Part shown: one piece after another, positions 3,470 to 26,990 of the stretch
How positions within the stretch are numbered: the stretch's first letter is position 1
Layout: each line of letters starts with the position of its first letter
DNA from: Candidatus Aenigmatarchaeota archaeon
GTDB lineage: Archaea > Aenigmatarchaeota > Aenigmatarchaeia > Aenigmatarchaeales > Aenigmatarchaeaceae
Assembly: GCA_043814985.1 (NCBI GenBank)
Contig: JBDRJK010000021.1
Coordinates: 1-64,000, forward strand
DNA length: 64,000 bases
Direction of reading: 5' to 3'
The notes under the pieces: generated by a model
Database searches by the model: none
What the model was told of the DNA's origin: nothing
What the model saw: only the letters and a program-made list of their open reading frames with translations
Translations under genes and position numbers: made by a program

Positions 3470-3769
3470 TTATACACAACCACAAAGTCTTCTGCATCCA
3501 TCAAGATCTGTTATTGGAATATCATATTTATTAAGACACAATTGCTGTAAATTAATAGAGCCAGGCACGCCTTCAACAGTTATCTGTGCCGGAGTTTTGG
3601 AGCAGTCATAAGCCATCTTTCTGCATGCATTATTTTTAATAGCGTCTATTCCTGCTGTCTCTGCAAATGGTGTCCAGCCAGTGAAATAGACTGCAACCAT
3701 GCCCAAAAGAACAATTACAGCTATGACGATGATAACCAGAACTTCAATGGGAAGCGCTATGCCCTTCAT
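3470..3769 (-). CDS. type IV pilin-like protein (class III signal peptide)
   Basis: Re-started at MKG|IALPIEVLVIIVIAVIVLL; Cys motifs ending in C..LCGC; TATA box TTTTATATA about 22-30 nt upstream. Confidence 0.8.
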   Translation of the reverse strand: MKGIALPIEVLVIIVIAVIVLLGMVAVYFTGWTPFAETAGIDAIKNNACRKMAYDCSKTPAQITVEGVPGSINLQQLCLNKYDIPITDLDGCRRLCGCV

Positions 3770-3800
3770 AAATTCTATTTGAGAAAAGTCGTATATAAAA

Positions 3801-4169
3801 TTAAGTGCAACCACAGAGTTTTGCGCACCCTGTTGCGTCTGTATCAAAATAAATTGAACATAAATTTACCATATTATCATTTGCTCTTGAGGCACAATTG
3901 GCTGTATCAGCTGGACAAAAGTATCCGTCATCATTTACATCATATTTAGGAAGACCGGCCTTTGATCCGTCAAACAATATATTAGTTAAGTCTATTGAAG
4001 AGCAGTCATAAACCACCATTCTGCACCCAGCGTTCTTGACAGCGTCAACTCCAGCCGTTTCTGCAAAGGGTGTCCAGCCAGTGAAATAGACAGCAATCAC
4101 ACCCAAAAGAACAATTACTGCAATAACGATAATCACTAAAACATTGATTGGAAGCTCTATACCCTTCAT
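3801..4169 (-). CDS. type IV pilin-like protein
   Basis: MKG|IELPINVLVIIVIAVIVLL; N-terminus nearly identical to its neighbour; DVNDDG motif. Confidence 0.85.
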   Translation of the reverse strand: MKGIELPINVLVIIVIAVIVLLGVIAVYFTGWTPFAETAGVDAVKNAGCRMVVYDCSSIDLTNILFDGSKAGLPKYDVNDDGYFCPADTANCASRANDNMVNLCSIYFDTDATGCAKLCGCT

Positions 4170-4256
4170 ATTCTCTATTTGAGACGCCTCGTATATAAAA
4201 ATATCCTAAGAAAAATCATGAGGGCGAAAAAAATCAATGCCCCTTGAAAAACTGAA

Positions 4257-4544
4257 TCACTTCTTCCCTAGTACGATCTCTATTGAAGAGACGTTTAGCT
4301 TCTCTCCCTGCTCTGTCTCGACCTGCTCTGTGTCTATCTTGACATTCTTGATCTCTGTGCCTGTGATGAACTTGTTCCTCACTATCTCAGCAACGTCCAC
4401 TGCGTGGGATATTGCCCTTCCCCTTGCCTTCAGTACTATCTCACTATTTCCCGCGTTGAACTGCGTCACGCATGCTAGCACATAGCTCATTGCAGGCTTC
4501 TTGCCTATGAAGACTACGTTGTTATCTGCTTCTTTCTCTGCCAT
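4257..4544 (-). CDS. albA: DNA/RNA-binding protein Alba
   Basis: [33 protein letters not shown] and NVSSIEI motifs; SD AGGAGG before ATG 4544. Confidence 0.97.
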
Positions 4545-4766
4545 TTTTACAACCTCCTGTTTCTGTATTCGTTTTATCAATGGTTTAGTAACCGTTGAGC
4601 TTTATTGCTTCAAAGTTATGCCCTGATATTAATAAATCTATCAAAAAATTAAAAGAAAAGAATAAAAAACCTCTAAATGAATAGAGGCAGTCAAATGAAA
4701 AATAGCCTAAACAAACAATTCCTTTTTTCATTCCTATCACTGAATAGCTGTTCTTTTTCTACAAGA

Positions 4767-5177
4767 CTATATTGCACAGCCACAAGATACTAGTCCGTTT
4801 CTTTCTTCTGTTACTCCGAAATAACAGGCTAGTAAAGCTGCTAGATTATCTCCATCAGCACTAGGACCACCACCTGTAGGTGCACCACATGTTGAAGTAC
4901 CCCAAGTCCAATCACTGCCTGTGTCTTCTGCTCCAAGTGTTCTATCCCTATCAGCATCAAAATCAAGAACATCTATGCTATCTAAAGCCACACCACCTGA
5001 GCAGCCTTCTGGAGATCTCATTATAAGTGCGCAGTACTTCTGCTTCGCTGCTTCCTGGTTCATAAGTCCTGCGGGTCCCATGAAGCCGCTGAAGTACAAT
5101 GCAACCAGACCTAATAGAACAATAACAGCTACTGCCACTACAACTAAAATATTTATTGGTAATTCGATACCTTTCAC
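4767..5177 (-). CDS. type IV pilin-like protein, candidate major pilin
   Basis: GTG start with strong SD GAGGTGA; MKG|IELPINILVVVAVAVIVLL; DFDADRD and GDNL motifs. Confidence 0.85.
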   Translation of the reverse strand: MKGIELPINILVVVAVAVIVLLGLVALYFSGFMGPAGLMNQEAAKQKYCALIMRSPEGCSGGVALDSIDVLDFDADRDRTLGAEDTGSDWTWGTSTCGAPTGGGPSADGDNLAALLACYFGVTEERNGLVSCGCAI

Positions 5178-5230
5178 TGTTTTTCACCTCTATTTTTTAT
5201 TGCTATTCTGATATATAAAGTTTTGTCTTG

Positions 5231-5632
5231 TCAGGGACAACCGCATACTTTCTTCAGGCAACAATTGTACCATGCCCCCCAGTCAGCTGACGCTTGGCTG
5301 CAACTGTAAAAATTACTGCACAACTCATCTAGGTTATCATCTCCGATGCTAGTAGAATACTGACCGTTTGGGACATGCTCGTTTACGACACCGTTGTTGT
5401 TGGCGTCAAAATCTTGCACAGCCATTCTTGATGCTATAGTGCGCTCAGGGTCTTTGTTCTTGCAGAAATCCGGGTTTATCTTTATACATGTGGAACTTGT
5501 GGCTGATTGCAATGAAGAACCCACAGAGCTGGGGTCAAAGGCATTAAAGAAGAATGCCAACCCTGTTGTTAGAACAATCAGAACTATCACAATTACAATA
5601 ATAGCATTTATTGGAAGCTCCATACCTTTCAT
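5231..5632 (-). CDS. type IV pilin-like protein
   Basis: MKG|MELPINAIIVIVIVLIVL; DFDANNNG, DDNL and C-terminal CGC. Confidence 0.85.
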   Translation of the reverse strand: MKGMELPINAIIVIVIVLIVLTTGLAFFFNAFDPSSVGSSLQSATSSTCIKINPDFCKNKDPERTIASRMAVQDFDANNNGVVNEHVPNGQYSTSIGDDNLDELCSNFYSCSQASADWGAWYNCCLKKVCGCP

Positions 5633-6007
5633 CTATTCACAGTGGCAAATATTTGTTCTACATTCTTCTCTACTAACACCATACCAGCATACACAAAGCA
5701 TTAGCAAGTTATCTCCCATATTTTGGTTAGAATCGCCACAGGCTGAGGCTGAGGGGGCATAATTTCCAATACCTTCGTTCAAATCCCCATCCTTATCAGC
5801 ATCAAAATTATTAACAATAATTTTCTCAGGATCATTACAACCAATGCTTATTAACATCTGGCATGCGTTGTTTTTTGCAGACTCCAGACTAATACCACCA
5901 ACCCCAGGATCCCAGACCCCGAAGAAGAACGCTATTATCGCTAACAAGACAACCATGACAATGACAATTATCACAATTGTGCTTATGGGAAGCTCCATAC
6001 CTTTCAT
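5633..6007 (-). CDS. type IV pilin-like protein
   Basis: MKG|MELPISTIVIIVIVMVVLL; AKNNAC, NFDADKDG, GDNL and C-terminal CHC. Confidence 0.85.
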   Translation of the reverse strand: MKGMELPISTIVIIVIVMVVLLAIIAFFFGVWDPGVGGISLESAKNNACQMLISIGCNDPEKIIVNNFDADKDGDLNEGIGNYAPSASACGDSNQNMGDNLLMLCVCWYGVSREECRTNICHCE

Positions 6008-6122: not shown

Positions 6123-6470
6123 ATGGAAGAATATGTATACAAAATGCCAAAGAAAAAGCACACAAAGGAAATCATAGCTTTCATAATTGTGGCTGCTGTT
6201 GTAGTTGTCATACTTTTCCAATATGAGCAGATTCTTTCAATGTTCGGTGAGCCTCTTGACAGGGATGAATGCCTGCAAGGCTTGTCTTATTGGTGTAGTC
6301 AGTGTCTGATAGATAATGGCTATAACTTTGATTCATGGGATATCGCAGGAGAACCCATTGGAAATGAGCTGGTGGAGTGTTCGAGCAAATATTTTGATGA
6401 TGTTTTCTATTCAGGTCAGGACTGCTCCGGAGAAACCATTGAGAAATGTTTGTTGTACATACAAGAATGA
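6123..6470 (+). CDS. membrane-anchored Cys-rich protein
   Basis: N-terminal TM helix and six Cys in the soluble part. Confidence 0.7.
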   Translation: MEEYVYKMPKKKHTKEIIAFIIVAAVVVVILFQYEQILSMFGEPLDRDECLQGLSYWCSQCLIDNGYNFDSWDIAGEPIGNELVECSSKYFDDVFYSGQDCSGETIEKCLLYIQE

Positions 6471-6472
6471 TA

Positions 6473-9400
6473 CTAGTTCTGGATTGCGTTGAAGGCTGAT
6501 ATCATGAATTCCTTGAATCTCGGGTAGTATGTGTCTTCTATCATGTTCAAATTGGCTTGCTCGTGTCTCCAGTTATTGGGGAAGAATTCTATGAGCCAAG
6601 CGCTAGAGCCTGGGGAATCAACAATGGCATCTGTGACAGAATATGCCCTTCCTGTTGAACTAGTATGTCCTGCTCTGAAATATGATGAGAAGGAAGGTGC
6701 GCCCTGTATGATTTGGTTTGCCAATGCTTGATTGCCATAGGCGCTTGCCATCTGCAGACCCGTGTGAAGATTGATGTAAACCATTGGACTATAAGTTCTG
6801 AAGACATTTTTTACAGTTTGTGTTTCTGGTTCGCTTCCTGCTGATGGACCCATATAGTCCCCAAGTGCACCGCAGTTTACTGGATCGTTTCCGCCATTTC
6901 GACCCCAACCTTCTACAAAGTTTCGGTTGAGGTTTACATTGTTGGCATTGCATCTTTTGAATGTGTTAGTATATATGTTGGACATGTCAGTGTTTACTAT
7001 CGGCATGAAGAGTACCCTGTTATTTTGCATTATGTCTTGTGCTGTGGCATCTCCAGTGTCCTCGCCATTCAGCAGCCAGTAGGCAAACCTTAGCAGAATC
7101 TCATGTGCATGATCCTCATTTCCATGCAATTGGGCATCTATAAACAATGCTGGAGCATTTGGATTGCCAGCCTCAAAAAGGTATATGTTCCTTCCCTGAA
7201 CTGATTTTCCTGCAACATGTATCTTATTACTCAAGCCATGTGCATTCCACAATTCCATCCACAGACTCTCCTTTTCAGCCCTGTCTCTCCATTGAGCCCA
7301 AGTGATGCTTGGGAAGTCTGGCAATTCATAAGTCGGTAAAGTGCTTCCACAAGACGAATCAGCAACGCATCTGGAAGCACCATAGCCGTCAGAGGCTATG
7401 CAGCCACTAGGCGTGCATGTCCTTGTTCTCTGCCTTTGGGTAGAAGAACAAGAGCCTCCCCCGCATGAGCCGCTAACCCAGTCAGTGCAGGAGCAGGTTG
7501 TCTGCTGGCTTTCAGATGCGAAAGACTGCATGACGTCGAAAAGTTCCGGATAATCCCTTATGTTCCACTCTTCTGTTCCTCCCTGCGGAGCTGGAACGTA
7601 CATGAATGCTAGGGCAACATCGACTCCCAAGTCCTTCATCTTTTGAAGAGTTGCTTGGTAAAAAGCTACAGTTTTCACAGGACCGTTTTCGTTTCCGCCC
7701 CATTCCGTGGCCCAGAGTTCCATTCCTGCGTTATGCGCGTCTGCAACAGCGTCCTCGACGCTCTGCCAATTGCTGTCCCAAGCTACAGAATTATCATATC
7801 TTCCATCCAGATAATGGTTAATGCTAATGTAATCAAATGTGTTCTTGTACCTTTCAGCATCGAATACTGGTCCATTGATTGCATAGGGGCTGTCCGGCAG
7901 GCTGTACCTGAAAGTTACTTTGGATTCAGGATCGTTGCTTTGTACCACAGCTACGGCATCGTCCCAGTAGTCCATCCATTGATTATAGAGTTGGGTATCA
8001 GAATTTGATTCCACTCTGCCAGCCTCATTCAATATTGAGTAGCTATGCTTTGGATATGAGGCAAGTCCTTTTGTGTAATAGTCTATCATGTTCAGGTAGT
8101 ATTGCCTGTATGTGGGATTTGTTGCAATCTGGCGCGTAGACCCGCTTATTTGTCCACCTACTTGGAGATAAGGAACTGTCCATAGAGCGCTTGGTGTGAT
8201 TGTATGAAAGTCAATCTGCACATTTATTCCCTTCTGCTCTGCAACTGTAAGAATCTGTCTTAAAGCGTTTAGAGTTGAAGTACTATATTGGCCTAAAACA
8301 GGTTCAAGAACTTGCCATATAAGCCTGACACTAACATACTTGATGCCATGCTGCCTGAACATTTCAAAGTCACTTTCTATTCTGCTGTTGGAAGGTGCAT
8401 CCCAAAAATAATAGTTAACACCAACTCCAAAACCATCACTTGTTGTACCTCCAGTACATGTCTGGTCAATTTGAGACTGAAAGTCGACGAGTTCATCGTA
8501 TGCAGGCTCTGGGCCTCCTGCGCCGTAGATGTTGAAACCTTCGTCCAGTCCAGTCCTTCTTGTTTCCCATGCCCATGCATATGCCCTTTGCACTATTCCT
8601 GCTTCTTCAAATTTCTGCAGGCTCTGTGTATAATGGATTCTATTTTGCTCAAGGTTTGTGTTGTCGTCCCCGAACTCTATGATCCAGAGTGACTTGTTCC
8701 TAGTCTTCAAATCAGATATAGTGTTGTCCCAATGAGACCATCTACCATTGCCTTCATTTGCATTTGGATTGGACGGGTCCAGATATATGGTTAATGCGAA
8801 TACATCGAACACGTCATACAATGAATCGCTGTATTTACCACTTCCAGGAGTGTACGAAAGTGTGAAGCGACATATTATGGTATGTGAGTTATCCACAGAC
8901 TCTATGGCGTCATAAGTATCCCTTATTAACTGCTCCATAGGAGCCCTTTGGTCAGCAGTGTTGTACCAAGGCTCGTTTAGTATGGCCCATGATTCAAGAG
9001 CAGGATAGTCTTTCAACTCTGCTACTACTGCCTTTACATATCTAAGCCAGTAACTTTTTGTTGGATTTAAAAGCAAGCTAAAGTAGTTAGTACCTGCCCA
9101 TGAGGGGAATCCTAAATTCCAACCGAACTGCGTCCAAAAGTCCAGATTGACTTTAATCCCATTGTTGTTAGCAGCATTGAGCACCCTCTTTATATTGTTA
9201 AGGTTTCCTGTGCTTAGCTGTGCGTTTCCAGAGTTATAATTAGGCTCCATCACGCTCCACATTACACGTACAGAGATGTGCTTTATTCCATCGTTGGCAA
9301 ACCTTGAGAAATCAGCATTCAATTGGCTATCAGACTCTGACCAGGCATTGCCGCCTGATATATAATTTATTCCCATAGCCATGCAGCTGTCACCGCTGAA

Positions 9401-12400
9401 GGTAACAGTCGTTGTGTCGCTATCATAACCAGCACCCGCATTTACTGTAACAGTGGCAGTGCCTGGCGAGGACGAGCTTATGGTCCTAGAGCATTTGCCA
9501 TTAGCATCAGCTGTGCAGCCGGATCTGTCAATGGTGCCTAAGTTTGTTGAGAAAGCTATGTATAGAGTTGGATAAGATGGGTTTGTTTGTGCTGTTAAGG
9601 TTGATGTTCCACCTACTGGTATTGATGATGGTGAAGCAGAAACTGATAAAGATGGAGAGGAGCTTCCACAAGAAGCATCAGCAACGCATCTGCTTGTTCC
9701 CAAACCATCGGATGGAGTACAACCAGTAGGAGTGCATGTCCTTGTTCTCTGTCTTTGTGTAGAGGAACAAGAACCTCCTCCACACGATCTTGATACCCAG
9801 CCAGTGCAGGAGCAGGTTGAAGATGCTGGTGGAATAACCAAACCTAAATCTTTGTAACGTTGCCAGTTCTCATCATCTTCTCTAAGCCAAATAAAGTTGA
9901 TTATAATTATGTCAGGATCAGATATGGAACGATCATAGCAATATTCAAGGAACTCATTGAGCTCAGCTACTTCCGAACTATCAAACTCGTTTCTCTCCCT
10001 ATAGTCTGCGCCAACCTCAGTGTTCGCCATCCAGGTTACACCGTTATCAATGAAGTGCTGCATATCAGCCTTTGCACTCTCTACAGTTTCATCATTGAAG
10101 TATGCGTGTATTCCTTGGTAGAATTTATTTTGAGGATCATTGATTTTATCGTAGGTATGCATCCAGAACCTGTCCATAACCAATATATTCGTTATTCCAG
10201 CTTGCCGAAGTTTCATTGTCATGTCATCCATAGTGTCATAAAAGTCATAGCCATTGCTTTCTAAGTTAAACCGTGATAAGACGCTGTCCGGACCAGTTAA
10301 GGATAATTCATTGGAAAGTTCGTACCAGACCCTGTGAGAATATTCTTTGTTGTTGGTTTGTTCTAGGTTCTCGACTTGGTTCTGCGTGGAAATTATGTCA
10401 TTTATTGCAGTTTGATAATTCTGCATGAATCTAACTGCACCTGAAGAATCTGGAGGATAAACATGATTTCGATCAACAATAATTATCCAATCATCTGGGG
10501 TGTTCTCAAGATAGTGTTCTATGTAAGAAAATCTGTATGGATGAACAGTTGACGCCCATGAAGGATTATATGGTAGACGGAAAATTTTCATGTTATTTTC
10601 ACTCATAAGATTTAAGACGTTGTCTATTTCTGATATTGAAGAAAAATATCCACTAAAACCAATTAAAGGGATGTTTGTTGAAGTTGTTGTTGGTTCTTCT
10701 GATTGTTTACAGCAGCACACACCAGAGGAACAGCCGTTCTGGTCGATGGATTTTTCATCTGACGAACAGGTGGCTGTTGATGATGGAGGTTTTGTTGTTA
10801 TCGGGCTTTTGCTTAAAATAATGTCGTCAAAGTAAACCGTCTTTGTAGACTCTACTACATCAGTATAATGTTTGACAGGTATCCAGTTGAATTCGTCCTG
10901 CTTGAACCGAGTCTGTATATTTCTCCAGTTCACAACTTTTGTTCCATCGATCCACACCTCAACCACTCCGTTTGTCGGATGGCGCACTACATGATATTGC
11001 ATAGTGTGCCAAACTCCCCTGGTGAAATAAAAATCAGTGATTGCATCTTCCGAGTCAACTATCATCCCGTTTTCTACCTTTTGTCTGCCTAACTTGAACC
11101 TTAGTTCGTTTCCCTCGAATACAGGTTCGATACGCAAAGTGTTCTGTTCGTCAACATACTCGAACATTAGGCCTTGGAAAACAAACCATTCGTTTACTCC
11201 TGTGAGTAAGAAATCTGATGGAAAAAGGATTTTCACTTGTACCCAGTATTCTGCTTCACTGAGATATTGAATAACCTCTGTTGATCTGGCTGTGGCTGTT
11301 TCTCCTGGCGCAGTGACTTTTAGCACCCTGTTTCCACTATTTTCTGGATCATAAGCAAAACTGATAGTTTCTGGACGATATATATGACCTTCGCCCCATC
11401 CCGTGAGTTCTCCGCCGACCAGCTGTGTCGTCGAAAAGTCATCTTGCAAAATTATGTCTTCAGATGTTCCTTCCCCTCCTCCTGAAGTTCCTCCTTCTGC
11501 AAGAGCATTCTTCAATACCTGACCCGAAGCTGTTGGAGTTTCCCAATCATAAGCCAACAAAGCATGATTTTCCCCTTCTGCATTTGCACCTCCACCAGTG
11601 TCTTGTATCCTAAGCCACCACCATGCAACATATCCCATACTCCAATCAGTTCCATCATTGTTTTCTTGTCCGTTGGCGATTCTAGTCATTAGTCTAACAA
11701 ATTCAACTTCGTCTTGGTTTCTATAATCTCCGCCAAACTCCTGAACCATTATCGGAGCTTTATCAAGAACGTAATCCCATCCCCAATCTCTTATTTCATC
11801 TTTTATTCCTTGAACTGTATCATGTCCACCGAACTCATGTGCATATTGGTGATAAACATAAACAAGGTTTTCTCCATCTAAGAAGTCAATATTAGGATTG
11901 TCCCGGATTGGACGAGCATCATGGCTCCACCCTTGAACTGCAACCATAATCAGATTTTTTGCTCCTGTCGAACGAATAGCGTCTATAGCTAGTTGAATTG
12001 CATCCCACCATTCTTCGTCTGTAACATCATGCGGTTCGTTCCAGGGACCAAATATGACATAAGGATTGTCTTTGTAAAGGTTGGCTATTTCTTTCCAAGT
12101 TTCAATCCAATCATCTATGTTAGGAGGCATTCTCATTAATTGTCCACTGTAGTCATGCTCATGAGGATATGTAATAGGGTCACCTCTAACCCACCAAATC
12201 AATGAAAGATCAGTGTAGATTCCACGTTCAGCTCCCCAGTCAATTGCTTGTTGCATCTCCAGTCTGTTTTTTCCTTCCTCCCAATACTCTCTAGTGAACG
12301 GAACCCTGACATAATTCGCTCCCCATTTTTCTATTTCATCCCAAGCATGTTCTGTCCAATCAATCTCAGTTGCTGGGTCACGTCCTGGTTTTGCTATCCA

Positions 12401-12793
12401 ATTCAATCCAGGACGGTTTACTCCACGAAGAAACACAACATTATTGTTAGAATCCTTGATCCACCTTCCTTCTGTTTTTAATTCACCATCAGAAGGAGGC
12501 TCTACTGGCGGTGTTCCAGAAAATCTGCAAGTTCCTGAGTAAGATGCGCCGAATTGCAATTGGCATGCTTGGTTGCAATTCTCACTTGGTGTAATATCAT
12601 CTGGAGGCGTAGTATCATCAGGAATATTGCCAAAGACTGTTGAAATAGCAGTGTTTATAAGATCCATTGCTTCATGTTCTCCTTCTGTCGTAAAAGCAAG
12701 CCCATAGTTTATAATAATCATAAAAGCGCTCGCGCCTAATAATGCTAACAAGACAACTGTGAAAAAGCCCCATGTACCTCCCTTAAAGGCCAT
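6473..12793 (-). CDS. giant secreted multi-domain hydrolase: class III-like signal, 4 GH5/clan-A-like barrels, lyase/ConA-like domain, 2 TSP1-like repeats, Big_1 Ig domain, M14 Zn-carboxypeptidase
   Basis: MAFKG|GTWGFF..hydrophobic. Acid/base motifs WNEP, SNEL, LNEP, LNEA with downstream nucleophile-like EFG/EVG/EFG/EWG. M14 motifs HGNE, NLNRNF, LH and IEF. Confidence 0.85.
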   Translation of the reverse strand: MAFKGGTWGFFTVVLLALLGASAFMIIINYGLAFTTEGEHEAMDLINTAISTVFGNIPDDTTPPDDITPSENCNQACQLQFGASYSGTCRFSGTPPVEPPSDGELKTEGRWIKDSNNNVVFLRGVNRPGLNWIAKPGRDPATEIDWTEHAWDEIEKWGANYVRVPFTREYWEEGKNRLEMQQAIDWGAERGIYTDLSLIWWVRGDPITYPHEHDYSGQLMRMPPNIDDWIETWKEIANLYKDNPYVIFGPWNEPHDVTDEEWWDAIQLAIDAIRSTGAKNLIMVAVQGWSHDARPIRDNPNIDFLDGENLVYVYHQYAHEFGGHDTVQGIKDEIRDWGWDYVLDKAPIMVQEFGGDYRNQDEVEFVRLMTRIANGQENNDGTDWSMGYVAWWWLRIQDTGGGANAEGENHALLAYDWETPTASGQVLKNALAEGGTSGGGEGTSEDIILQDDFSTTQLVGGELTGWGEGHIYRPETISFAYDPENSGNRVLKVTAPGETATARSTEVIQYLSEAEYWVQVKILFPSDFLLTGVNEWFVFQGLMFEYVDEQNTLRIEPVFEGNELRFKLGRQKVENGMIVDSEDAITDFYFTRGVWHTMQYHVVRHPTNGVVEVWIDGTKVVNWRNIQTRFKQDEFNWIPVKHYTDVVESTKTVYFDDIILSKSPITTKPPSSTATCSSDEKSIDQNGCSSGVCCCKQSEEPTTTSTNIPLIGFSGYFSSISEIDNVLNLMSENNMKIFRLPYNPSWASTVHPYRFSYIEHYLENTPDDWIIIVDRNHVYPPDSSGAVRFMQNYQTAINDIISTQNQVENLEQTNNKEYSHRVWYELSNELSLTGPDSVLSRFNLESNGYDFYDTMDDMTMKLRQAGITNILVMDRFWMHTYDKINDPQNKFYQGIHAYFNDETVESAKADMQHFIDNGVTWMANTEVGADYRERNEFDSSEVAELNEFLEYCYDRSISDPDIIIINFIWLREDDENWQRYKDLGLVIPPASSTCSCTGWVSRSCGGGSCSSTQRQRTRTCTPTGCTPSDGLGTSRCVADASCGSSSPSLSVSASPSSIPVGGTSTLTAQTNPSYPTLYIAFSTNLGTIDRSGCTADANGKCSRTISSSSPGTATVTVNAGAGYDSDTTTVTFSGDSCMAMGINYISGGNAWSESDSQLNADFSRFANDGIKHISVRVMWSVMEPNYNSGNAQLSTGNLNNIKRVLNAANNNGIKVNLDFWTQFGWNLGFPSWAGTNYFSLLLNPTKSYWLRYVKAVVAELKDYPALESWAILNEPWYNTADQRAPMEQLIRDTYDAIESVDNSHTIICRFTLSYTPGSGKYSDSLYDVFDVFALTIYLDPSNPNANEGNGRWSHWDNTISDLKTRNKSLWIIEFGDDNTNLEQNRIHYTQSLQKFEEAGIVQRAYAWAWETRRTGLDEGFNIYGAGGPEPAYDELVDFQSQIDQTCTGGTTSDGFGVGVNYYFWDAPSNSRIESDFEMFRQHGIKYVSVRLIWQVLEPVLGQYSTSTLNALRQILTVAEQKGINVQIDFHTITPSALWTVPYLQVGGQISGSTRQIATNPTYRQYYLNMIDYYTKGLASYPKHSYSILNEAGRVESNSDTQLYNQWMDYWDDAVAVVQSNDPESKVTFRYSLPDSPYAINGPVFDAERYKNTFDYISINHYLDGRYDNSVAWDSNWQSVEDAVADAHNAGMELWATEWGGNENGPVKTVAFYQATLQKMKDLGVDVALAFMYVPAPQGGTEEWNIRDYPELFDVMQSFASESQQTTCSCTDWVSGSCGGGSCSSTQRQRTRTCTPSGCIASDGYGASRCVADSSCGSTLPTYELPDFPSITWAQWRDRAEKESLWMELWNAHGLSNKIHVAGKSVQGRNIYLFEAGNPNAPALFIDAQLHGNEDHAHEILLRFAYWLLNGEDTGDATAQDIMQNNRVLFMPIVNTDMSNIYTNTFKRCNANNVNLNRNFVEGWGRNGGNDPVNCGALGDYMGPSAGSEPETQTVKNVFRTYSPMVYINLHTGLQMASAYGNQALANQIIQGAPSFSSYFRAGHTSSTGRAYSVTDAIVDSPGSSAWLIEFFPNNWRHEQANLNMIEDTYYPRFKEFMISAFNAIQN
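7345..7500 (-). repeat. TSP1-like Cys-rich repeat, copy 2 (copy 1 at about 9665-9820)
   Basis: TCSCTxWVSxSCGGGSCSSTQRQRTRTCTPxGC..SDGxGxSRCVADxSCGS occurs twice, with clear DNA similarity. Confidence 0.85.
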
Positions 12794-12848
12794 ATATAGA
12801 AATATCAATTGTCTGGCTTATAAATTTCAAGGAATTGTGATATGAGAA

Positions 12849-15479
12849 TCAACTTAAGTACAACAAAAATTCCTCGTACCTAATCATGCCTTCGCTCTCT
12901 CCTGCTAATGCTATCGTATATGTTCCTTCAGGTGTTCCTGGTTCCACTTCAATTGTCATCATAGAACCGGGCGGCCCTTCAACAGGGTTAGTGTCAAAGC
13001 TGACAGTTATTCCTGTTACTTGTGGGTAAATGGTATAGCTAAGGTAAATGGGCTTTCTGTCAGGGCCCAAATAATCTATTGTTATGAAAGTTTCTAGGGT
13101 TTGGGTATCATCGAGGCTCTTGTCTATTTTCACTAATTGCGATTTGACTCCTTCCTGATTCTCTGCTTTATCAACTGAGAAATACCTCACATAGCTTGTT
13201 CCCCCCGACAGGATGAATGTGGAATAATATATTGATTCAGAAGGGTCACACCAGTCATTATTAGCATAGCAATAAAAAGTTTTATCACAGCCACTAACAT
13301 CATCCGAGCATTTTAGCGATATGCTGACATCTCTGTTATACCAGCACTGGTCAAGGCAGGTCTGGTCATTGCACTGTATTGTTGTTATTGGTGGGAAAAT
13401 GTCAGCACATTTTATATCATAGCTACAAGAGTATGAACCTTCAGTACATCTTTCAAAGTCCTCGCAGTCGTCATGGAGATTAAATTCATTGGAAACTGTT
13501 GCGCCATTGCACAGATAGCTGGAGCCAGAGCAATACCTGTCTTGATAGCTCACGTATACGTCATCCCCACAAGCAGTTCCGTCGCGGCACTCATAGACAG
13601 CATCGTAATTCTCATCGCAAAGATATGTGTCTTGCCTGTATAAGTCAGTGGGGCATGTTGAGCTCGAGCCAGTACAGTATTCTGTTAAATCGCAGGTTCC
13701 TCTAGAAGCCCTGCATGGAAAATTAGATTCCCTGTAGTTGCAGCCATCACAGCAAACTCCAGACGAGCATTCGCAGTCACAGCTGGGATCATAGCTACAA
13801 GAGGATGAACCTTCAGTACATCTTTCAGTGTCTGAGCAACCATCATAAAACTGGTAGTTGGTCCAGTTTGTTGCGCCATTGCACAGATAGCTGGAGCCAG
13901 AGCAATGTCTCTCATTATACCTCACGGCTACATCATCGCCACACTCAGTTCCCCAATAACAACTATAGTCAGTCTGATAATAATAATTGCAGATATAGCT
14001 GGAAGACCTGAAATTGCCGCTGGTGTCGCAGCATGGTCCAGAGCCTGGTGCGCAATCATTTTGTGTGATTTGTGTAAAGGTGACAGTCGTTGTATCAGGT
14101 TCATAGCCACCTGCATCTGCTGTCACAGTTGCAGTGCCTGCTGTATTAGAGGTTATTGTCACAGAGTACTTTCCTGTGCTGTCGGCTGTGCCTGATGATC
14201 TTGACAGAGTGCCTAGAGTTGTTGAGAAAACTATGTACAATCCTACATTAACCGGGTTTGAGTATGCTGTAAGTGTTGATGTTGTTGTACCGTCTGCTGG
14301 TACGGAGGATGGTGAAGCAATCAATGTTAATCTAGGTTCTCCTCCAGAACTTTGACATGTTCCACTAATACAAGTATCAGTTCCAGAACATGTTCCACAG
14401 CTTCCACTACAACCATCAGACCCACAATTCTTTCCTACACAGTTGGGTGTACAATCAAAATATGCGATAAATGTACCTACCACACCTGCCAATGCGTTGA
14501 ATGACGGCAAGGGGCTAAAAGTCTGAGTGTAACCGTTTGATGCCCACATATAATCTAAAGCATAGCCGGGGTAGTTAGAAGCTGATATTGATACATAGGT
14601 GCCAGCAGCAACTGTTATTGTTTTGCTTGTTGATGTGCATTGGCTGTTAAGACATATCTGGCCCCAGTTCTGAGGCGAAACCATGATTGTATATGTGGCA
14701 TCGTCTTCAGCAATAAGATTGCATTCCCCGTTTTGACATTCATATCCATTTGAACATGTTCCGCAGTTAATCGTCCCTCCGCAACCATTATTCTGAACTC
14801 CACATTCGTAACCAAGACTCCAGCACGTGTTAGGACATTCACACTTGCAGTTTTCATTACAAAAACCATCGCCAACACATAGGTTATCATTTCGTATTGT
14901 AGTACCACAGCCACCAGACATGGTACAACCAGATTCACAACATTCACTTCTACAATTGCAGAATTCCTCTTCCCAACAGGAACAATAGAAGCTTGGGTCT
15001 TTATTGTATCCAATTCCAAAATTTACACAACTATAGTGGCATGTCTCGCCAGCACAAAAGGGAAAACCATTACAAAGGTTTATATTTTGACCAATACCAG
15101 CTACACTATATCCTTCTTGTTCGCATTTGTAATCGCATGGCTGAACAGGACATTGTGCCGGACAATTACAGTAATCACAATGAACATCATCCCAGCAGTA
15201 ACATATTATCCATTCAGAACCAAGACGTTCAGAGCAGTCACTAGGACCAATCTCATGACAATTATAGCGGCATGTCTCGCCAGTACAATAAGGAAAACCA
15301 CTACAAGGATTTGGATCTCTAAAACTACATCCTCCATAATCATAACCACTGCATGCATCAGTACATTCTGAGGCAATAACCCCCGTTGAAAATAAGAGAA
15401 AGATGTTTAAGGATAAAAATAATACAAGGTATTTACATATTGGATTTTTACTGATATTTATCACCATTGAAACCTTCAT
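12849..15479 (-). CDS. secreted Cys-rich surface protein with disintegrin-like repeats and Big_1 Ig domain
   Basis: N-terminal signal peptide; CCDGCNYRESNFPCRASRGTCDLTEYCTGSSSTCPTD; Ig segment similar to that of the 2100-aa protein; internal repeat at about 13420-13535 and 13790-13905. Confidence 0.8.
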   Translation of the reverse strand: MKVSMVINISKNPICKYLVLFLSLNIFLLFSTGVIASECTDACSGYDYGGCSFRDPNPCSGFPYCTGETCRYNCHEIGPSDCSERLGSEWIICYCWDDVHCDYCNCPAQCPVQPCDYKCEQEGYSVAGIGQNINLCNGFPFCAGETCHYSCVNFGIGYNKDPSFYCSCWEEEFCNCRSECCESGCTMSGGCGTTIRNDNLCVGDGFCNENCKCECPNTCWSLGYECGVQNNGCGGTINCGTCSNGYECQNGECNLIAEDDATYTIMVSPQNWGQICLNSQCTSTSKTITVAAGTYVSISASNYPGYALDYMWASNGYTQTFSPLPSFNALAGVVGTFIAYFDCTPNCVGKNCGSDGCSGSCGTCSGTDTCISGTCQSSGGEPRLTLIASPSSVPADGTTTSTLTAYSNPVNVGLYIVFSTTLGTLSRSSGTADSTGKYSVTITSNTAGTATVTADAGGYEPDTTTVTFTQITQNDCAPGSGPCCDTSGNFRSSSYICNYYYQTDYSCYWGTECGDDVAVRYNERHCSGSSYLCNGATNWTNYQFYDGCSDTERCTEGSSSCSYDPSCDCECSSGVCCDGCNYRESNFPCRASRGTCDLTEYCTGSSSTCPTDLYRQDTYLCDENYDAVYECRDGTACGDDVYVSYQDRYCSGSSYLCNGATVSNEFNLHDDCEDFERCTEGSYSCSYDIKCADIFPPITTIQCNDQTCLDQCWYNRDVSISLKCSDDVSGCDKTFYCYANNDWCDPSESIYYSTFILSGGTSYVRYFSVDKAENQEGVKSQLVKIDKSLDDTQTLETFITIDYLGPDRKPIYLSYTIYPQVTGITVSFDTNPVEGPPGSMMTIEVEPGTPEGTYTIALAGESEGMIRYEEFLLYLS

Positions 15480-16524
15480 TCTTTAGATACATTTCAAATA
15501 TAATAGAGTCATCTTTGACAATTTTGGTAACCAATATTTTTCCGTCATACCTGTAAAAATCAAATCTATTAGGATTATCTTCTTGTGAGGTTAAATATTC
15601 CAGTTCTGCATCATCTGAAGAAAATGGGAAAACCATTGCTTTGATTAAGGAGAATATGTTTTCAAAATCTGTTTCTGAAAAAATAATACTGGAAATTCCT
15701 GAGTCTAAATCATAATTTATTACGAGGTTTTCTTCCGAACCCTCACAAAAGATATTTAGAGAGTATTCATTCTGATACATGCGTATATAATCTAGTCTGC
15801 AAATACTCAAAATCTGAAAAGCTATTCTAGCTTTTTCATCAAAAGGGAGTTTCTCATCGACTATTATTGGGAAAGAATATGATGTTTTGTTCAAATTAAA
15901 GTTTAAAATTGTGTCATAGTAATTACAGGTAAGTTTTACAGACGAAAACATCTCTTCATTATGAACAAATTCATCATAATCATAAGGCGAGCAATTGTAG
16001 AATTCCTTTATGTCTTCATGAACAACATCAGTAAACTCTTCATCTCTACCGTTTTCAAGCTTAAAGTTGTCAACATCAAAATAATATATCTTAACTATTC
16101 CATTATCACAGTAAAAGAACAGATTGTTGTTTTTGGAGTAAAGGAAGTCGCAGTTGTTATTAGTCAAATCATTGAATACACCCGGTTGTTCCCTCAAAAA
16201 AGACCAGCCGTTCATGTCACTAATAATATTTCCGTTTTCAAATTCGGCATAGTATGGTCTGTCATTGCAAATCATCCAGAACTTGTCGCTGTCTAGGCTT
16301 AACTCCTCTCTTTTAATGTCGCAGAACTCTAGATCAGCTTCTAATAATTCCAAAACAGTTTCTCTGCCTAATGAATCTTGAAGGGAACTGTCCTTTGGTT
16401 CCCCATACAAATAATTTATTGACAAGAATATCGCAAATACTATTATCAGACTTATCAACAATGGCACAAAAACATTCAAGTCCAGTTTCAAGGCTCCAGT
16501 AGATTTTCTTTTTCTCATGGGCAT
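15448..16524 (-). CDS. membrane-anchored hypothetical protein (possible class III signal)
   Basis: RKRKSTG followed by a hydrophobic helix; lies in the pilus operon with overlapping neighbours. Confidence 0.7.
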   Translation of the reverse strand: MPMRKRKSTGALKLDLNVFVPLLISLIIVFAIFLSINYLYGEPKDSSLQDSLGRETVLELLEADLEFCDIKREELSLDSDKFWMICNDRPYYAEFENGNIISDMNGWSFLREQPGVFNDLTNNNCDFLYSKNNNLFFYCDNGIVKIYYFDVDNFKLENGRDEEFTDVVHEDIKEFYNCSPYDYDEFVHNEEMFSSVKLTCNYYDTILNFNLNKTSYSFPIIVDEKLPFDEKARIAFQILSICRLDYIRMYQNEYSLNIFCEGSEENLVINYDLDSGISSIIFSETDFENIFSLIKAMVFPFSSDDAELEYLTSQEDNPNRFDFYRYDGKILVTKIVKDDSIIFEMYLKNEGFNGDKYQ

Positions 16525-17402
16525 ACCACCTTAAAGGTTACTGAACCAGGGTCGACTGTTAAACCAAAATCGAATTCAAGCTCATCATCACCTGTTATTT
16601 CCTTCTTATACTTGAATCTTAGTTCAACATACTCATAAGGAATTAATGCATTAATGGAACTAGGTTCCCCTGGTTTCAAAGGTGCCAGGCAATACGCGTC
16701 AGAATGAGGACAATAGCCTACAATGGTTATCTCCACAATATTTTCGTCTATGTTTGCTATCCTGTTGAAATCTAAGCCAACAAATCTGGGGTCCCCGCTT
16801 CCTTTCAGATTATACAATTCATTCACAAGAGCTCCAGGATTGCTTAGAATATCTTCAAAATGAGAATCCTCCATTATGGCCCTGCCTGCATTAAGCAGTT
16901 TGAAGTAATTGGAGTCTATTATAGAATCAATTTTATGGTCAACAGATATTCTAGCATCAATGCCTTCGTCATAAAAAGAAATGTACCTGCTTCCCCTTAC
17001 AAAAAATTGCGTCGAGGCATGGTCATTAACGTCTATTTCAGCCTCATCGAAATTTACGCTTATGCTTCCCTTTTCATAGGACTTGGGCATGTTCCTCTTT
17101 ATCCTTCTCACCAGTTCATCTTCTAGGGTTTGGATTTTGGGATAATCTGGTGTCCAGAAATCCTCGTATTCCAGGCCGCCAGTTTTACCCAGTTCAAAGG
17201 CAGCTCTCTGAGAAATGAAATATAAACTCTGGTCAAATGACTTCAAAAGAAGTTCAGCCTGGTTTGAAAATGATAACAGCTTGCCCTCTACAGTCACTAT
17301 GTTCCTTTCAACATTGTATCCCATGTTCAGTCTCAGCAAGAACAGACTGGTGAGTATGAGTGTTATTCCCACGAAAGCATATGCCCAAACCTGACCTTTC
17401 AT
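16515..17402 (-). CDS. minor pilin-like protein
   Basis: MKG|QVWAYAFVGITLIL. Confidence 0.8.
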   Translation of the reverse strand: MKGQVWAYAFVGITLILTSLFLLRLNMGYNVERNIVTVEGKLLSFSNQAELLLKSFDQSLYFISQRAAFELGKTGGLEYEDFWTPDYPKIQTLEDELVRRIKRNMPKSYEKGSISVNFDEAEIDVNDHASTQFFVRGSRYISFYDEGIDARISVDHKIDSIIDSNYFKLLNAGRAIMEDSHFEDILSNPGALVNELYNLKGSGDPRFVGLDFNRIANIDENIVEITIVGYCPHSDAYCLAPLKPGEPSSINALIPYEYVELRFKYKKEITGDDELEFDFGLTVDPGSVTFKVVCP

Positions 17403-17905
17403 TTTACATACACCCAAAGCTTTAATTCAACATCTGTTCCGTCCAATGTAAACAATTTTGTTGAGCTCTCCTGAACGCGCAGCGGAGTCCTGGGCAGTGA
17501 TGGCATGTTCTCTTGGACAATTATTATTTCCCTTGTGCCGGTGACTGCTTTTAACAGGTAAGGCTCGTCAATCCTTGAGGACAAGAAGTTTTCACAAACC
17601 GAGCTCAAGTCTATTAAATTGCCTTCCAACCATACTACAGTGTTTTCCTGGATCGCCACTGCGTTCAGTATCTTTTTTATTGGCATTCCATTATTCTCGT
17701 ACTCCATCAGTGATAGTAATGTTGTGTCATATCTAACAGGATTGAAAAATAAGGTTAGCTCAACGGTTCTCGTTGTTGCAACGCCCAAATTAGTCTCGAC
17801 ATTATAGAGGAGAATAAAGGCCCACAAAATAAGCATTGAAAGCATTATCACTCCTAATAGGACGAATATCGAGAATATGTCTGAGAAAAGCTGGAATCCC
17901 TTCAT
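17399..17905 (-). CDS. minor pilin-like protein
   Basis: MKG|FQLFSDIFSIFVLLGVI; overlapping start and stop with neighbours. Confidence 0.8.
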   Translation of the reverse strand: MKGFQLFSDIFSIFVLLGVIMLSMLILWAFILLYNVETNLGVATTRTVELTLFFNPVRYDTTLLSLMEYENNGMPIKKILNAVAIQENTVVWLEGNLIDLSSVCENFLSSRIDEPYLLKAVTGTREIIIVQENMPSLPRTPLRVQESSTKLFTLDGTDVELKLWVYVK

Positions 17906-18300
17906 AGCCTAACCACCAACTCGCCAGGGACTTTCTGGCCATTCCCTAATTCAACCAGGACATCAAAAACCGCCTTGTCATCCATGAAAGGCTCTGAGCC
18001 CAGGAGCACTGTCCTGCTGAAACTTTCGGTTGTTATCTCTATTTCTCCAGCAGGGTAGTCGAAGCAAGAATCAAGGCTGTCTATTTTTGACTGTAGTATT
18101 ATGCCCTTCATCCCGTTATTCAGGCAAGGGGATGACATCAGGGCATTTCCTAAAACATACGCTTCCCTGTTCGCGTCGTTCCTGTAAACAGTAATCTCAT
18201 AAGTTACATAGGTGAAGAATATCGCCAAGGCTCCCATTACCATCAGTGCTATCTGCACTAATTTTATGAAAGTCGATGTTAATTCGGACTGTCCTTTCAT
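17902..18300 (-). CDS. minor pilin-like protein
   Basis: MKG|QSELTSTFIKLVQIALMV. Confidence 0.8.
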   Translation of the reverse strand: MKGQSELTSTFIKLVQIALMVMGALAIFFTYVTYEITVYRNDANREAYVLGNALMSSPCLNNGMKGIILQSKIDSLDSCFDYPAGEIEITTESFSRTVLLGSEPFMDDKAVFDVLVELGNGQKVPGELVVRL

Positions 18301-18302
18301 CT

Positions 18303-18794
18303 TTACACCGATATTGTTTCTGCTTTTGGATATTCAGGGGTTGGGGCACCAATAGATAGGAAGCAAGTCCCATCACTTCTCTCTATCTTTTTAACAGTTA
18401 TTGTTTGCTTCAAGCCTCTCTTGAGCTTTATTTCTTGTTCATATATTTCACAGTCAGATGCAAATGCAGTTGGCTCTATTGTTGCAAACTTTGCCTTCAG
18501 GTAATAGTCCCCAGGAGGAATAATATGGACGTAGTTCACACCATCCTCTTCATAAACACTTATAGTGTATGCCTGCCCTGTTGTTTCAGTGCTTGCCACG
18601 AACTCTCCTGGTGCGAAACTGCCTATTGACATGCTTGATGTTAGCCAGTTTTGAAGCAGGATAGGCTCTACGAACATGAGATAATAGAAGGTGTTGCTTG
18701 CAATGCCCTCTTGCCCGAACAGGGTTACCAGTATTACTAAGAGAACAATGACTTCTGCAACAAATTTTAGAAAATCCTTTGTTATTTCACTCAT
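18303..18794 (-). CDS. membrane-anchored pilus-locus protein
   Basis: N-terminal hydrophobic helix without a KG leader. Confidence 0.7.
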   Translation of the reverse strand: MSEITKDFLKFVAEVIVLLVILVTLFGQEGIASNTFYYLMFVEPILLQNWLTSSMSIGSFAPGEFVASTETTGQAYTISVYEEDGVNYVHIIPPGDYYLKAKFATIEPTAFASDCEIYEQEIKLKRGLKQTITVKKIERSDGTCFLSIGAPTPEYPKAETISV

Positions 18795-18826
18795 AAAATA
18801 TAATTCATTTGGTATTTAATTATAGG

Positions 18827-21385: not shown

Positions 21386-21402
21386 TATATATCAACATTA
21401 AT

Positions 21403-21708
21403 TTACTGTTTGGGTGGGCAGGAGCAATAAACTTCCAAGTCTTTGACAGTTTGAATTTTTAAACGTTCGAAAGCCAATGTATACAAATCCCCTCCACTCG
21501 GGTCTTCTTCAATGCACTGTATATCTTGAATTACACTGATGCTTGTGGGACAGCCATATGCCCTGTATTTAATGCAGCAGTTTCTCATTTCATTCTGCAG
21601 ATTTAAATCTTCACCAAAAGGAAGTATGTTTCCTGTTACCAACAGCGCTCCTACAACTATAACAATTAAGAAAATTACAAGCAATACCAACTTATCTAAA
21701 GCCATCAT
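21403..21708 (-). CDS. small pilin-like Cys-rich protein
   Basis: N-terminal hydrophobic helix; CC..C..C and a terminal YCSC like the other pilins. Confidence 0.75.
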   Translation of the reverse strand: MMALDKLVLLVIFLIVIVVGALLVTGNILPFGEDLNLQNEMRNCCIKYRAYGCPTSISVIQDIQCIEEDPSGGDLYTLAFERLKIQTVKDLEVYCSCPPKQ

Positions 21709-22019
21709 ATTTTAGCCTTACAAAGGTTTCTACAATTATCTATGTCCCAATTTGACATGTCGTCGTCAGGGGGTTTCCCAAGGGCAGTTGCACAGTTCTC
21801 ATTCACAGGGTATATCTCATTGTTTGCTATAACGTTTTGACCTTTACCTTCTCTGTAGTCTCCAACTCCCCAGTAAATACAGAACTGCCTGAAGTCTATT
21901 TGATTGCCTGTGTCCTCCCCGAAGGAGAAAACAGGATTGACCACAATTATCGCTATTACTAGGAGAATAATGACTACAAATATCAAACCTAAAAGCACCT
22001 CTAATTCTAAGCCCTTCAT
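21705..22019 (-). CDS. type IV pilin-like protein
   Basis: MKG|LELEVLLGLIFVVIILL; terminal CRNLC. Confidence 0.8.
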   Translation of the reverse strand: MKGLELEVLLGLIFVVIILLVIAIIVVNPVFSFGEDTGNQIDFRQFCIYWGVGDYREGKGQNVIANNEIYPVNENCATALGKPPDDDMSNWDIDNCRNLCKAKI

Positions 22020-22023
22020 ATAA

Positions 22024-23295: not shown

Positions 23296-23359
23296 AAATC
23301 CTATTGGTTAGAACTATATATTAAATGTTTTGTTTTCTTCTGATTAAATTGTGATATTT

Positions 23360-23755: not shown

Positions 23756-23792
23756 AAGAAAGATATTCTATTTTTAGAATATAAAATTAGGG

Positions 23793-26756: not shown

Positions 26757-26786
26757 AATTATTTTTAATGCGGTTTTGTATATAAA

Positions 26787-26990
26787 TCAAGCTGGTATAA
26801 TTGCGCATCCGTGGGTCAAGGCCTTGAATATGTTGCCGAATGGTATCCAGAACATGGCCCCGCACACTATCTTTCTTACAAAGGTCCCACCGAAGAATAT
26901 GGGATCTATTAAAAATACAAAAACAACCAGCCCTATGAGTACTATAACCATTACTACTATCACTGATGTTAAATGTTCTGTCATATCCAT
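26787..26990 (-). CDS. small membrane/pilin-like protein
   Basis: MDMTEHLTSVIVVMVIVLIGLVVF; within the operon. Confidence 0.6.
   Translation of the reverse strand: MDMTEHLTSVIVVMVIVLIGLVVFVFLIDPIFFGGTFVRKIVCGAMFWIPFGNIFKALTHGCAIIPA

Follow-up and report, generated by a model that had tools for sequence, protein, structure and literature searches.

A giant multi-hydrolase encoded within a type IV pilus-like locus of a small-genome archaeon is probably exported and tethered at the cell surface

The stretch of DNA analysed here, hereafter the window, comprises the first 64,000 nucleotides (nt) of contig JBDRJK010000021.1 of a Candidatus Aenigmatarchaeota archaeon (GenBank assembly GCA_043814985.1). 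It encodes a 2106-residue protein, the window giant, in which four barrels of glycoside hydrolase family 5 (GH5) type and an M14 zinc carboxypeptidase are joined in a single chain. On balance, we lean towards the view that the window giant is a Sec-exported, membrane-tethered multi-enzyme of the cell surface, whose export route, tether, substrates and role towards a host may be pictured as follows. The N-terminal helix would carry the chain through Sec and would most likely be retained as a signal-anchor, staying in the membrane because no other anchor is present at the C-terminus. Flexible linkers rich in Thr, Pro and Asp and Cys-rich spacers would keep the modules at a distance from the cell. 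The modules thus displayed, i.e. the four GH5-type glycosidases (retaining enzymes), a beta-sandwich of lyase-like or glycan-binding nature, the Ig-like spacer and the M14 carboxypeptidase, would cut beta-linked glycans and trim peptide C-termini of the envelope of a partner cell or of nearby polymers. The degradation products could feed a cell with very little biosynthesis. The tie to the pilus would be one of co-location, perhaps with co-deployment at the contact site.

On the minus strand the gene occupies an uninterrupted frame, 6473..12808, in which the ATG at 12793 yields 2106 residues starting MAFKGGTWGFF... One intact gene of 2106 codons therefore encodes the protein of about 2106 residues, starting with MAFKG and a hydrophobic helix, that had been described in the first-pass annotation, whose domain coordinates agree with the present ones within about 10 residues. 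The window is archaeal, with a 16S rRNA gene at 1700-3285, and is part of a 112,767-bp contig. The source genome, a small-genome archaeon as had been supposed, belongs to DPANN (Aenigmatarchaeota) and measures 807,958 bp in 21 contigs at 91% completeness; 0.8% of these 808 kb is occupied by the window-giant gene. Metagenome contigs from three runs of two studies independently cover the gene, and both of its ends are spanned with 0 differences by X1 records 2 and 7 and by X3 record 18 (second study). Because independent contigs bridge both ends without any difference, the gene and its placement are not assembly artefacts. Its parts are as follows:

6473..12793, minus strand: whole gene of the window giant, 2106 codons plus stop (stop codon 6473-6475)
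12692..12793, minus strand: N-terminus, MAFKG and a 29-residue hydrophobic stretch with an internal A-S-A (aa 1-34)
12494..12691, minus strand: polar segment of amphipathic look, Thr/Pro/Asp linker and 3-Cys motif, CNQACQLQFGASYSGTC (aa 35-100)
11474..12493, minus strand: GH5 barrel 1 (aa 101-440; acid/base E253, nucleophile E352)
10820..11413, minus strand: PF14099 polysaccharide-lyase-like or ConA-like beta domain (aa 461-658)
10679..10816, minus strand: Cys-rich linker, ...CSSDEKSIDQNGCSSGVCCC... (aa 660-705)
9818..10681, minus strand: GH5 barrel 2, a divergent family without a Pfam model (aa 705-992; E829, E926)
9668..9814, minus strand: 6-Cys repeat, copy 1, TSP1-like by motif only (aa 994-1042)
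9389..9646, minus strand: Ig-like domain, Big_1-like (aa 1050-1135)
8459..9385, minus strand: GH5 barrel 3 (aa 1137-1445; E1274, E1373)
7502..8458, minus strand: GH5 barrel 4 (aa 1446-1764; E1590, E1697)
7349..7495, minus strand: 6-Cys repeat, copy 2 (aa 1767-1815)
6476..7333, minus strand: M14 zinc carboxypeptidase (aa 1821-2106; H1890, E1893, N1956-R1957, H2010, E2069)

Pfam was run on the whole window giant and on nine segments of it, with a cut-off of 23.5 bits for PF00150. Enzymes of GH5 and clan GH-A are (beta/alpha)8 barrels in which the acid/base, an Asn-Glu, follows strand 4 and the nucleophile Glu follows strand 7. Barrel 1 (segment aa 100-445) matches PF00150 Cellulase/GH5 at E 1.4e-28 (100.6 bits) and has stand-alone homologues at 41-48% identity. 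Its acid/base motif NEP is aligned with the GH5 structure 5d8w, and its nucleophile motif VQEFG (E352) falls in the nucleophile column of the GH5 alignment A1. Barrel 3 reaches E 4.4e-9 (36.7 bits) over positions 17-268 of the 272 positions of the hidden Markov model (HMM), and copies of it occur at 53-61% identity in the homologues P0002 and P0005. Its acid/base NEP is aligned with the GH5 mannanases 3wfl and 3ziz, and the putative nucleophile IIEFG is assigned only from its motif, its distance of 99 residues and its presence in P0002 and P0005. Barrel 4 matches PF00150 at E 2.7e-7 (30.8 bits) and also GH42 at E 2e-6; its nucleophile ATEWG is aligned with that of 6jyz and 3pz9, and the putative acid/base LNEAG is placed only by motif, by the 107-residue spacing and by conservation in homologues. 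The comparison of the A1 profile with barrels 3 and 4 by hhalign was uninformative (probabilities of 0.6% and 5.7%).

Barrel 2 was identified by another path, its sequence alone giving no Pfam match and no PDB sequence match. An exhaustive HMMER search returned 142 homologues, 59 of which, picked for their short length, make up the family alignment. Across these 59 sequences H73, E121, E125, H192, Y194, E222 and G224 are invariant and R35, N124 and W265 nearly so; R35, H73, N124, E125, H192, Y194, E222 and W265 are what we take to be the eight conserved signature residues of GH5. Against GH5 structures, the profile of the family matches 5ecu best (E 6.5e-17), and this alignment puts NE on the acid/base and TEvG on the nucleophile. 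The AlphaFold (AF2) model of barrel 2 has a pLDDT of 93.4, and the 40 PDB matches listed by Foldseek belong to GH5 (endoglucanases or mannanases) or to its close relatives in clan GH-A, at E about 1e-7 and TM 0.5-0.6. With barrels 1, 3 and 4 recognised by Pfam and barrel 2 by profile and model, all four are real GH5/clan GH-A domains, as had been claimed at first reading, and the NE and E-x-G motifs pointed out then stand at the putative catalytic positions. The enzyme domains of the window giant look catalytically complete, as predicted from their residues.

The segment aa 446-665 scores 46.3 bits against PF14099 Polysacc_lyase (cut-off 29.9), which is in line with the lyase/ConA-like beta domain of the first-pass annotation. 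This domain has no match in the PDB sequence search and could be a glycan-binding module instead of a lyase. The two 6-Cys repeats had been called TSP1-like. They are a true duplication (171 nt at 77% DNA identity), so that the duplicated units are real, but they resemble TSP1 in motif only (C-x-C-x2-W...R-x-R-x-C) and are not assigned to the TSP_1 family, no match being found to TSP_1 in Pfam at E<=1 or in PDB sequences at E<=10. The Ig-like domain may be a Big_1 domain, as proposed: its score of 26.1 bits is below the 34.9 cut-off, and a 57%-identical segment of the 876-residue protein encoded next to the window giant passes it with 44.7 bits. Cys motifs like CNQACQLQFGASYSGTC precede catalytic domains in P0002-P0004 and in the giants of contig C19 of the same genome, and the Cys-linker motif CSSDEKSIDQNGCSSGVCCC recurs in the C19 giant C19:5815-12930 and in P0002-P0004.

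The C-terminal domain matches the M14 model PF00246 at E 1.3e-28 (100.9 bits), and its counterparts at the C-termini of P0002-P0004 are 55-61% identical. The hallmarks of M14 enzymes, in the numbering of carboxypeptidase A (CPA), are the zinc ligands HxxE and a distal His, Arg127, Asn144-Arg145 and the catalytic Glu270. In the window giant HGNE, KR, NRNF and NLHTG are aligned with carboxypeptidases D and B (CPD and CPB), which confirms the Zn-peptidase that had been recognised from HGNE, NRNF, H and E; the putative catalytic Glu in WLIEF is assigned only from its motif and from its presence in P0003 and P0004. In common with CPA, CPB and CPD, the domain has zinc ligands of the pattern HxxE...H, an NR pair for substrate binding and, by motif only, the WLIEF glutamate at the expected catalytic position. 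Unlike these enzymes and MpaA, it forms the C-terminal module of a giant, and it is no MpaA equivalog: the model NF007897 gives 19.7 bits against an equivalog cut-off of 157 bits, and the earlier idea of a cut in gamma-D-Glu-DAP peptides is unsupported.

Multi-catalytic modular glycosidases are known from polysaccharide degraders, such as the multi-domain cellulases of Caldicellulosiruptor. Like the modular GH5 enzymes of this type, the window giant unites several clan GH-A barrels and binding modules in one exported chain with Pro/Thr-rich linkers, and its GH5 catalytic dyads are intact. Unlike them, it combines four GH5-type barrels with an M14 domain in a symbiont-type archaeon of 0.8 Mb, contains Cys-rich spacers, begins with a K-G helix, is encoded in a pilus locus and has almost no N-glycosylation sequons.

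Some irregularities were seen in the metagenome contigs that cover the gene. One contig from the run X1 joins 10871 to 11424 and omits 552 nt (184 codons, in frame), i.e. most of the PF14099 domain; this junction, on one contig only and with one side of just 48 nt, may reflect either variation in the population or sequence joined on from a different organism. At 11622-12524, the contig depth is about double in the runs X1 and X2, and barrel 1 is covered by a block of variant letters; the same samples seemingly contain another GH5 sequence, closely related to the first.

The N-terminus of the window giant reads MAFKG-GTWGFFTVVLLALLGASAFMIIINYGLAF-TTEGEHEAMDLINTAISTVFGNI and is followed by the Thr/Pro/Asp linker. 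All relatives with a complete N-terminus (7/7) have a Sec-type signal or anchor. They are P0003, P0005, a same-genus giant of >5153 residues, P0149, P0151, P0152 and P0153; P0002, P0004, P0148 and P0150, which are cut or lack an N-terminal signal, were left out of the count. The giant P0003 starts MKRICFVFLIMILLLPQLGYA and the same-genus giant MISRKSFLIVLILFLFLFSF, and P0149, P0151, P0152 and P0153, homologues of barrel 1, are stand-alone secreted enzymes.

The A-S-A at residues 21-23 follows a 13-residue hydrophobic core and is a possible site for signal peptidase I, whose cut would release a soluble enzyme that degrades environmental plant or microbial polysaccharides and has no contact with a host. 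Such a fate would agree with the close stand-alone homologues of barrel 1 and of the first barrel of the C19 giant, which are secreted GH5 enzymes with Sec signals from many metagenomes, and with the mannanases and other glycosidases that PMC8407114 reports for metagenome-assembled genomes of Aenigmarchaeota. However, a cut after A-S-A would leave 11 hydrophobic residues (FMIIINYGLAF) at the mature end, which is unusual for a soluble protein, and so small a genome (0.8 Mb), in giving 6.3 kb to a single diffusible enzyme, would draw little benefit from a public good. A cell-attached tool is a better match for the multi-enzyme design, for the Ig-like and Cys-rich spacers and for the position in a pilus locus. 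We consider release of a soluble enzyme quite improbable.

Another explanation is that MAFKG is a class III signal, cut after Gly5 by a prepilin peptidase of family A24, and that the giant is mounted by T2SSE/T2SSF. As a head-less minimal alpha-1 helix it would stand in the pilus, probably at the tip, or in a bindosome-like assembly, from where the hydrolases would reach the surface of the host. This is possible, albeit in our opinion rather unlikely. Class III signals have a short charged leader that ends in [KR][GA] and runs straight into some 20 or more hydrophobic residues. The class III pattern is present, MAFK-G being followed by 29 hydrophobic residues with K-G directly before them, and about 25 further residues could extend the helix. 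An A24 peptidase is also encoded in the genome, on another contig (G000:C11:82298-82642, 42.5 bits). Against this, the window giant lacks pilin-domain homology. Because only about 25 residues separate the hydrophobic stretch from the Pro/Thr/Asp linker, there is no pilin head, and in the true fusions described below the head is kept entire, conserved Cys and DFDAD motifs included. The profile of the five small pilins of the locus (alignment A4) gives no match to the N-terminus at E<=10, and residues 1-66 show no significant similarity to the proteins of the genome and of related loci (best E 0.11). Pfam cannot settle whether the N-terminus is that of a pilin, because the true small pilins have no Pfam match either; the first 110 residues gave DUF6520 only (E 0.13), and the best ESM Atlas score, 0.79, is a lead only. 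The K-G pair is weak evidence in this genome, since K-G or K-A also stands ahead of the hydrophobic run in plain Sec signals (MVKGLIKYV..., MKAAILLL...). A simple rule finds 29 class-III-like MK[GA] proteins there, and Gly at +1 occurs in 0/29 of their N-termini and in 1/30 of those of relatives. Finally, a class III N-terminus is present in 0/7 of the relatives with complete N-termini. Judged by its sequence, the window giant is not a pilin. Its K-G and hydrophobic run do resemble those of the MK[GA] proteins, and the earlier pilin-like reading receives partial support.

The window giant is strongly depleted in N-glycosylation sequons, with 1 N-X-S/T (NKS, aa 1366) against 22.2 expected from shuffles (standard deviation 4.6, z -4.7). 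When 587 open reading frames (ORFs) of at least 150 residues, from a greedily built set, are ranked, the three multi-hydrolase giants come out as the most depleted (Poisson P 6.6e-9, 8.8e-9 and 6.7e-6), with 1 vs 22, 1 vs 21.7 and 3 vs 19.1 sequons observed vs expected. Next come the 876-residue neighbour and a 987-residue protein of the pilus locus. Other large surface proteins are enriched two- to three-fold in sequons, e.g. 88 vs 29.5. Since sequons are depleted and AglB/STT3 is encoded in the genome, the window giant would meet the glycosylation machinery and hence be extracytoplasmic. The pattern indicates selection against N-glycosylation of this enzyme set; in the metagenomic homologues P0002-P0005 the depletion is only mild. 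Sequon depletion is common to the giant and the proteins of the pilus locus and was considered as a marker of the pilus route, which it would favour. It was rejected as such, the Sec-signal giant of the sister genome of the same genus being just as depleted (2 vs 31.2 expected). By sequon depletion, the Sec route and the pilus route cannot be told apart.

The gene lies within a type IV pilus-like locus, whose other elements are:

15448..31859, minus strand: type IV pilus-like operon, T2SSE, T2SSF and 12 co-directional genes
29628-31859, minus strand: T2SSE ATPase of the operon
27546-29627, minus strand: T2SSF platform of the operon
12849..15479, minus strand: 876-residue Cys-rich protein, upstream neighbour of the giant, with a Sec-type signal, Big_1 and a disintegrin-like stretch
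12818..12824, minus strand: TATA-like box tttataa, about 28 nt upstream of the ATG, read from the sequence
6123..6470, plus strand: ORF of 115 residues, convergent with the giant, with one transmembrane helix and several Cys
3470..6007, minus strand: five small MKG(I/M)(E/A)LPI pilin-like genes, with an Alba gene among them

Besides T2SSE and T2SSF, twelve further genes lie upstream on the same strand, among them that of the 876-residue neighbour directly ahead of the giant; six of the twelve start with MK[GA] and a helix. The order of the operon genes is kept in the related loci L015, L016, L017, L019 and L021. The 876-residue neighbour and the window giant have one module in common (57% identical). 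At the corresponding place in related loci the window giant is missing: wherever the end of the operon and the start of the pilin genes are both visible (6/6: L014, L015, L016, L017, L019 and L021), pilins come straight after the operon. In L014, the homologue of the 876-residue gene ends 60 nt before the first pilin. On the same-genus contig G002:C17 a 999-residue frame ends near 3811 and the pilins begin at 3869, with no giant between, L014 and G002:C17 being possibly the same record and so not independent. The 115-residue ORF, for which no homologue was found, is missing from L014 together with the giant. No full-length orthologue of the window giant was found in 40 relatives, where single modules match, nor in the search of genome contigs. 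The TATA-like box suggests transcription from a promoter of its own, with an mRNA that is leaderless. Because it is absent from 6/6 junctions, has no full-length orthologue and carries its own TATA-like box, the giant, together with the convergent 115-residue ORF, is apparently a lineage-specific insertion into the pilus locus. The link to this locus that had been proposed earlier is therefore real in position and is not shared by the related loci. The position argues for assembly of the giant by the pilus machinery; its origin by insertion, with its own TATA box, argues against it.

The label of the small pilins calls for some care. Their AF2 model (window 5633-6007 and paralogues; pLDDT 85) consists of helices only, lacks any beta-sheet and shows a Cys-rich head that contains a DFDADKDG loop; it gave 0 PDB matches in Foldseek and a best VIA-align Z of 2.8. 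Because the model is without a PDB match, the name rests on the N-terminus, the tandem paralogy and the locus, not on the fold. In the ESM Atlas, the small pilin falls in unnamed Aenigmatarchaeota clusters, and the family is present in 41/42 genomes of the order. A 300-residue protein of the operon (window 16515-17417) matches the N-terminal part of 340- to 1671-residue proteins that precede the pilins in related loci. The Alba gene (PF01918) lies at window 4257-4580, and a gene with the conserved N-terminal stretch of Alba also stands among the pilins in L015, L016, L017, L019 and L021. A polytopic membrane protein, L022:3-1028 (G001:C4), ends in the pilin-head motif (…DANQNG…DTLQALAEIYYGC…CGC); the pilin head is therefore not confined to proteins with a class III N-terminus.

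Fusions of pilus proteins with enzymes do exist in this clade. The protein C19:5815-12930 (G000; locus L010, plus strand) has 2371 residues, the first 104 of which form a complete pilin domain that the pilin profile matches over HMM positions 1-126 (E 1e-10). The pilin is followed by a GH5 domain (E 5e-13), a GH5 of A1 type (hmmsearch E 2e-84; PF00150 E 1.3e-11), PA14, GH5 (E 4.7e-25), a GH39-like barrel, PA14 and an M64 peptidase. This protein and an 845-residue protein of L017 retain every conserved pilin Cys and the DFDAD and DNL..LC motifs. C19:5815-12930 is evidently a true archaeal pilin-multi-hydrolase fusion. The general notion of enzymes joined to pilins, on which the first-pass annotation drew, thus holds in this genome for a different gene from that of the window giant. 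The counterpart of C19:5815-12930 in a sister species is a 544-residue pilin with one unassigned domain. Directly upstream of C19:5815-12930 lies a second giant of >1920 residues (GHL15, metallophosphatase, PF14099).

In the related locus L015, the last MK-G protein of the operon, L015:4270-9285, has 1671 residues with six LVIVD repeats and a papain-family C1 protease (E 3.3e-35), and its N-terminus (NKKG-helix) is homologous to the 300-residue operon protein of the window. The same-genus giant of >5153 residues (L012:1-15881; G001:C7) has a Sec signal, GH5, PA14 and InlB-like repeats and ends at the contig edge. Its start lies 4 nt within the end of a pilin gene, and translational coupling of the two is possible. 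Across the order, the pilin family has 125 matches, of which 5 lie in frames of at least 390 residues, 4 of them with an N-terminal pilin. Among 21 short homologues of the first 480 residues of the C19 giant, just one has the pilin part and the others are ordinary secreted GH5 enzymes. Because so few share the pilin part (1/21) and so few pilin matches lie in frames of at least 390 residues (5/125), the pilin-hydrolase fusion appears to be rare and recent.

Mounting of the window giant on the pilus would have precedents. According to Raynaud et al. (2021, PMC8179133), bacterial modular pilins number >1,200 proteins, the largest cited having 860 residues. In Streptococcus sanguinis, PilB bears a vWA module and PilC a lectin module, and peptidase (S74, M26), PA14 and ConA-like modules are present in the survey (PMC8179133). 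The concept in that account, a functional module behind a pilin module and displayed on a filament, applies to C19:5815-12930, which differs in being archaeal, in its length of 2371 residues and in carrying several glycosidases and an M64 peptidase. The window giant, unlike these proteins, is without a pilin module. The bindosome of Sulfolobus solfataricus is described in PMC4371748 as consisting of large non-pilins that have a class III signal only and are assembled at the surface by a dedicated PilB/PilC-like pair. For a protein with a K-G helix but no head, encoded in a locus of pilus type, its subunits offer the best precedent. Their cargo consists of substrate-binding proteins, whereas the window giant carries hydrolases and its class III processing is only putative. 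In a literature search of limited scope, no paper describing archaeal pilin-glycosidase fusions or the window giant was found.

Several observations weigh against a Sec-exported and membrane-tethered enzyme that merely neighbours the pilus. The N-terminus is untypical for Sec, its 29-residue hydrophobic run coming after K-G, the dipeptide that ends the leader of the 29 class-III-like proteins of this genome, and a protein of the L015 operon begins MKGGT, so that Gly at +1 does occur. The gene sits between the pilus-assembly genes and the pilin genes, and the remaining minus-strand ORFs of the pilus locus are also sequon-poor (13 vs 42.3 expected). The A1-type GH5 and the Cys linker are common to the window giant and the C19 giant, a modular pilin, and the 6-Cys repeat is shared with the 845-residue pilin L017:10415-12952. 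As to substrates, the best PDB matches of the barrels spread over endoglucanases, mannanases and an endoglycoceramidase. The fusions C19:5815-12930 and L015:4270-9285 likewise favour pilus assembly.

A broader reading, which we regard as unlikely, would make the pilus of this genus a delivery arm for giant hydrolases with interchangeable N-terminal adaptors. These would be a full pilin in C19:5815-12930, a head-less K-G helix in the window giant and coupling to a pilin gene in the giant of >5153 residues; the window giant would then be cut by the prepilin peptidase and stand on or beside the filament. If this were true, the near-total loss of sequons in the giants and the pilus proteins would mark a common assembly or host-contact constraint. 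On the present evidence a Sec-exported, membrane-tethered enzyme is still the reading towards which we lean.

Giant surface proteins thought to act on the host envelope are known in DPANN archaea, for example the SPEARE proteins of Nanohaloarchaeum antarcticus. Compared with them by description, the window giant is likewise a very large multi-domain extracellular protein of a symbiont with a reduced genome; unlike them, it has glycosidases and an M14 peptidase.

Other features of the window lie outside the pilus locus. Three tandem genes for class II tRNA synthetases of Asp/Lys/Asn type (PF00152 and OB fold) are found at 54718-59256, with a HIT-family gene after the first. A 92-nt tRNA with a putative four-letter anticodon (cata) is called by ARAGORN at 52744-52835 and by the Rfam tRNA model at 52.7 bits, and may contain an intron. 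At 46510-51855 lies a compact module that resembles a group-4 [NiFe] hydrogenase or complex I (20, 30 and 49 kDa subunits, NuoH-like, 2x4Fe-4S), with the HycI maturation protease, beside two P-type cation ATPases and a Na/Ca exchanger.

To our knowledge, little is understood of the ways in which DPANN archaea attack their partners or feed on them, and we know of no cultured host system of Aenigmatarchaeota. The window giant is a concrete candidate tool for opening the envelope of a partner, because four apparently active glycosidases and a peptidase are united in one exported chain that is encoded beside pilus genes. The C19 fusion would carry the bacterial idea of the modular pilin over to enzymes and to archaea. 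Lastly, the surface proteins of this organism divide sharply into a sequon-rich and a sequon-purged class, which suggests that glycosylation has been selected against on this set of enzymes.

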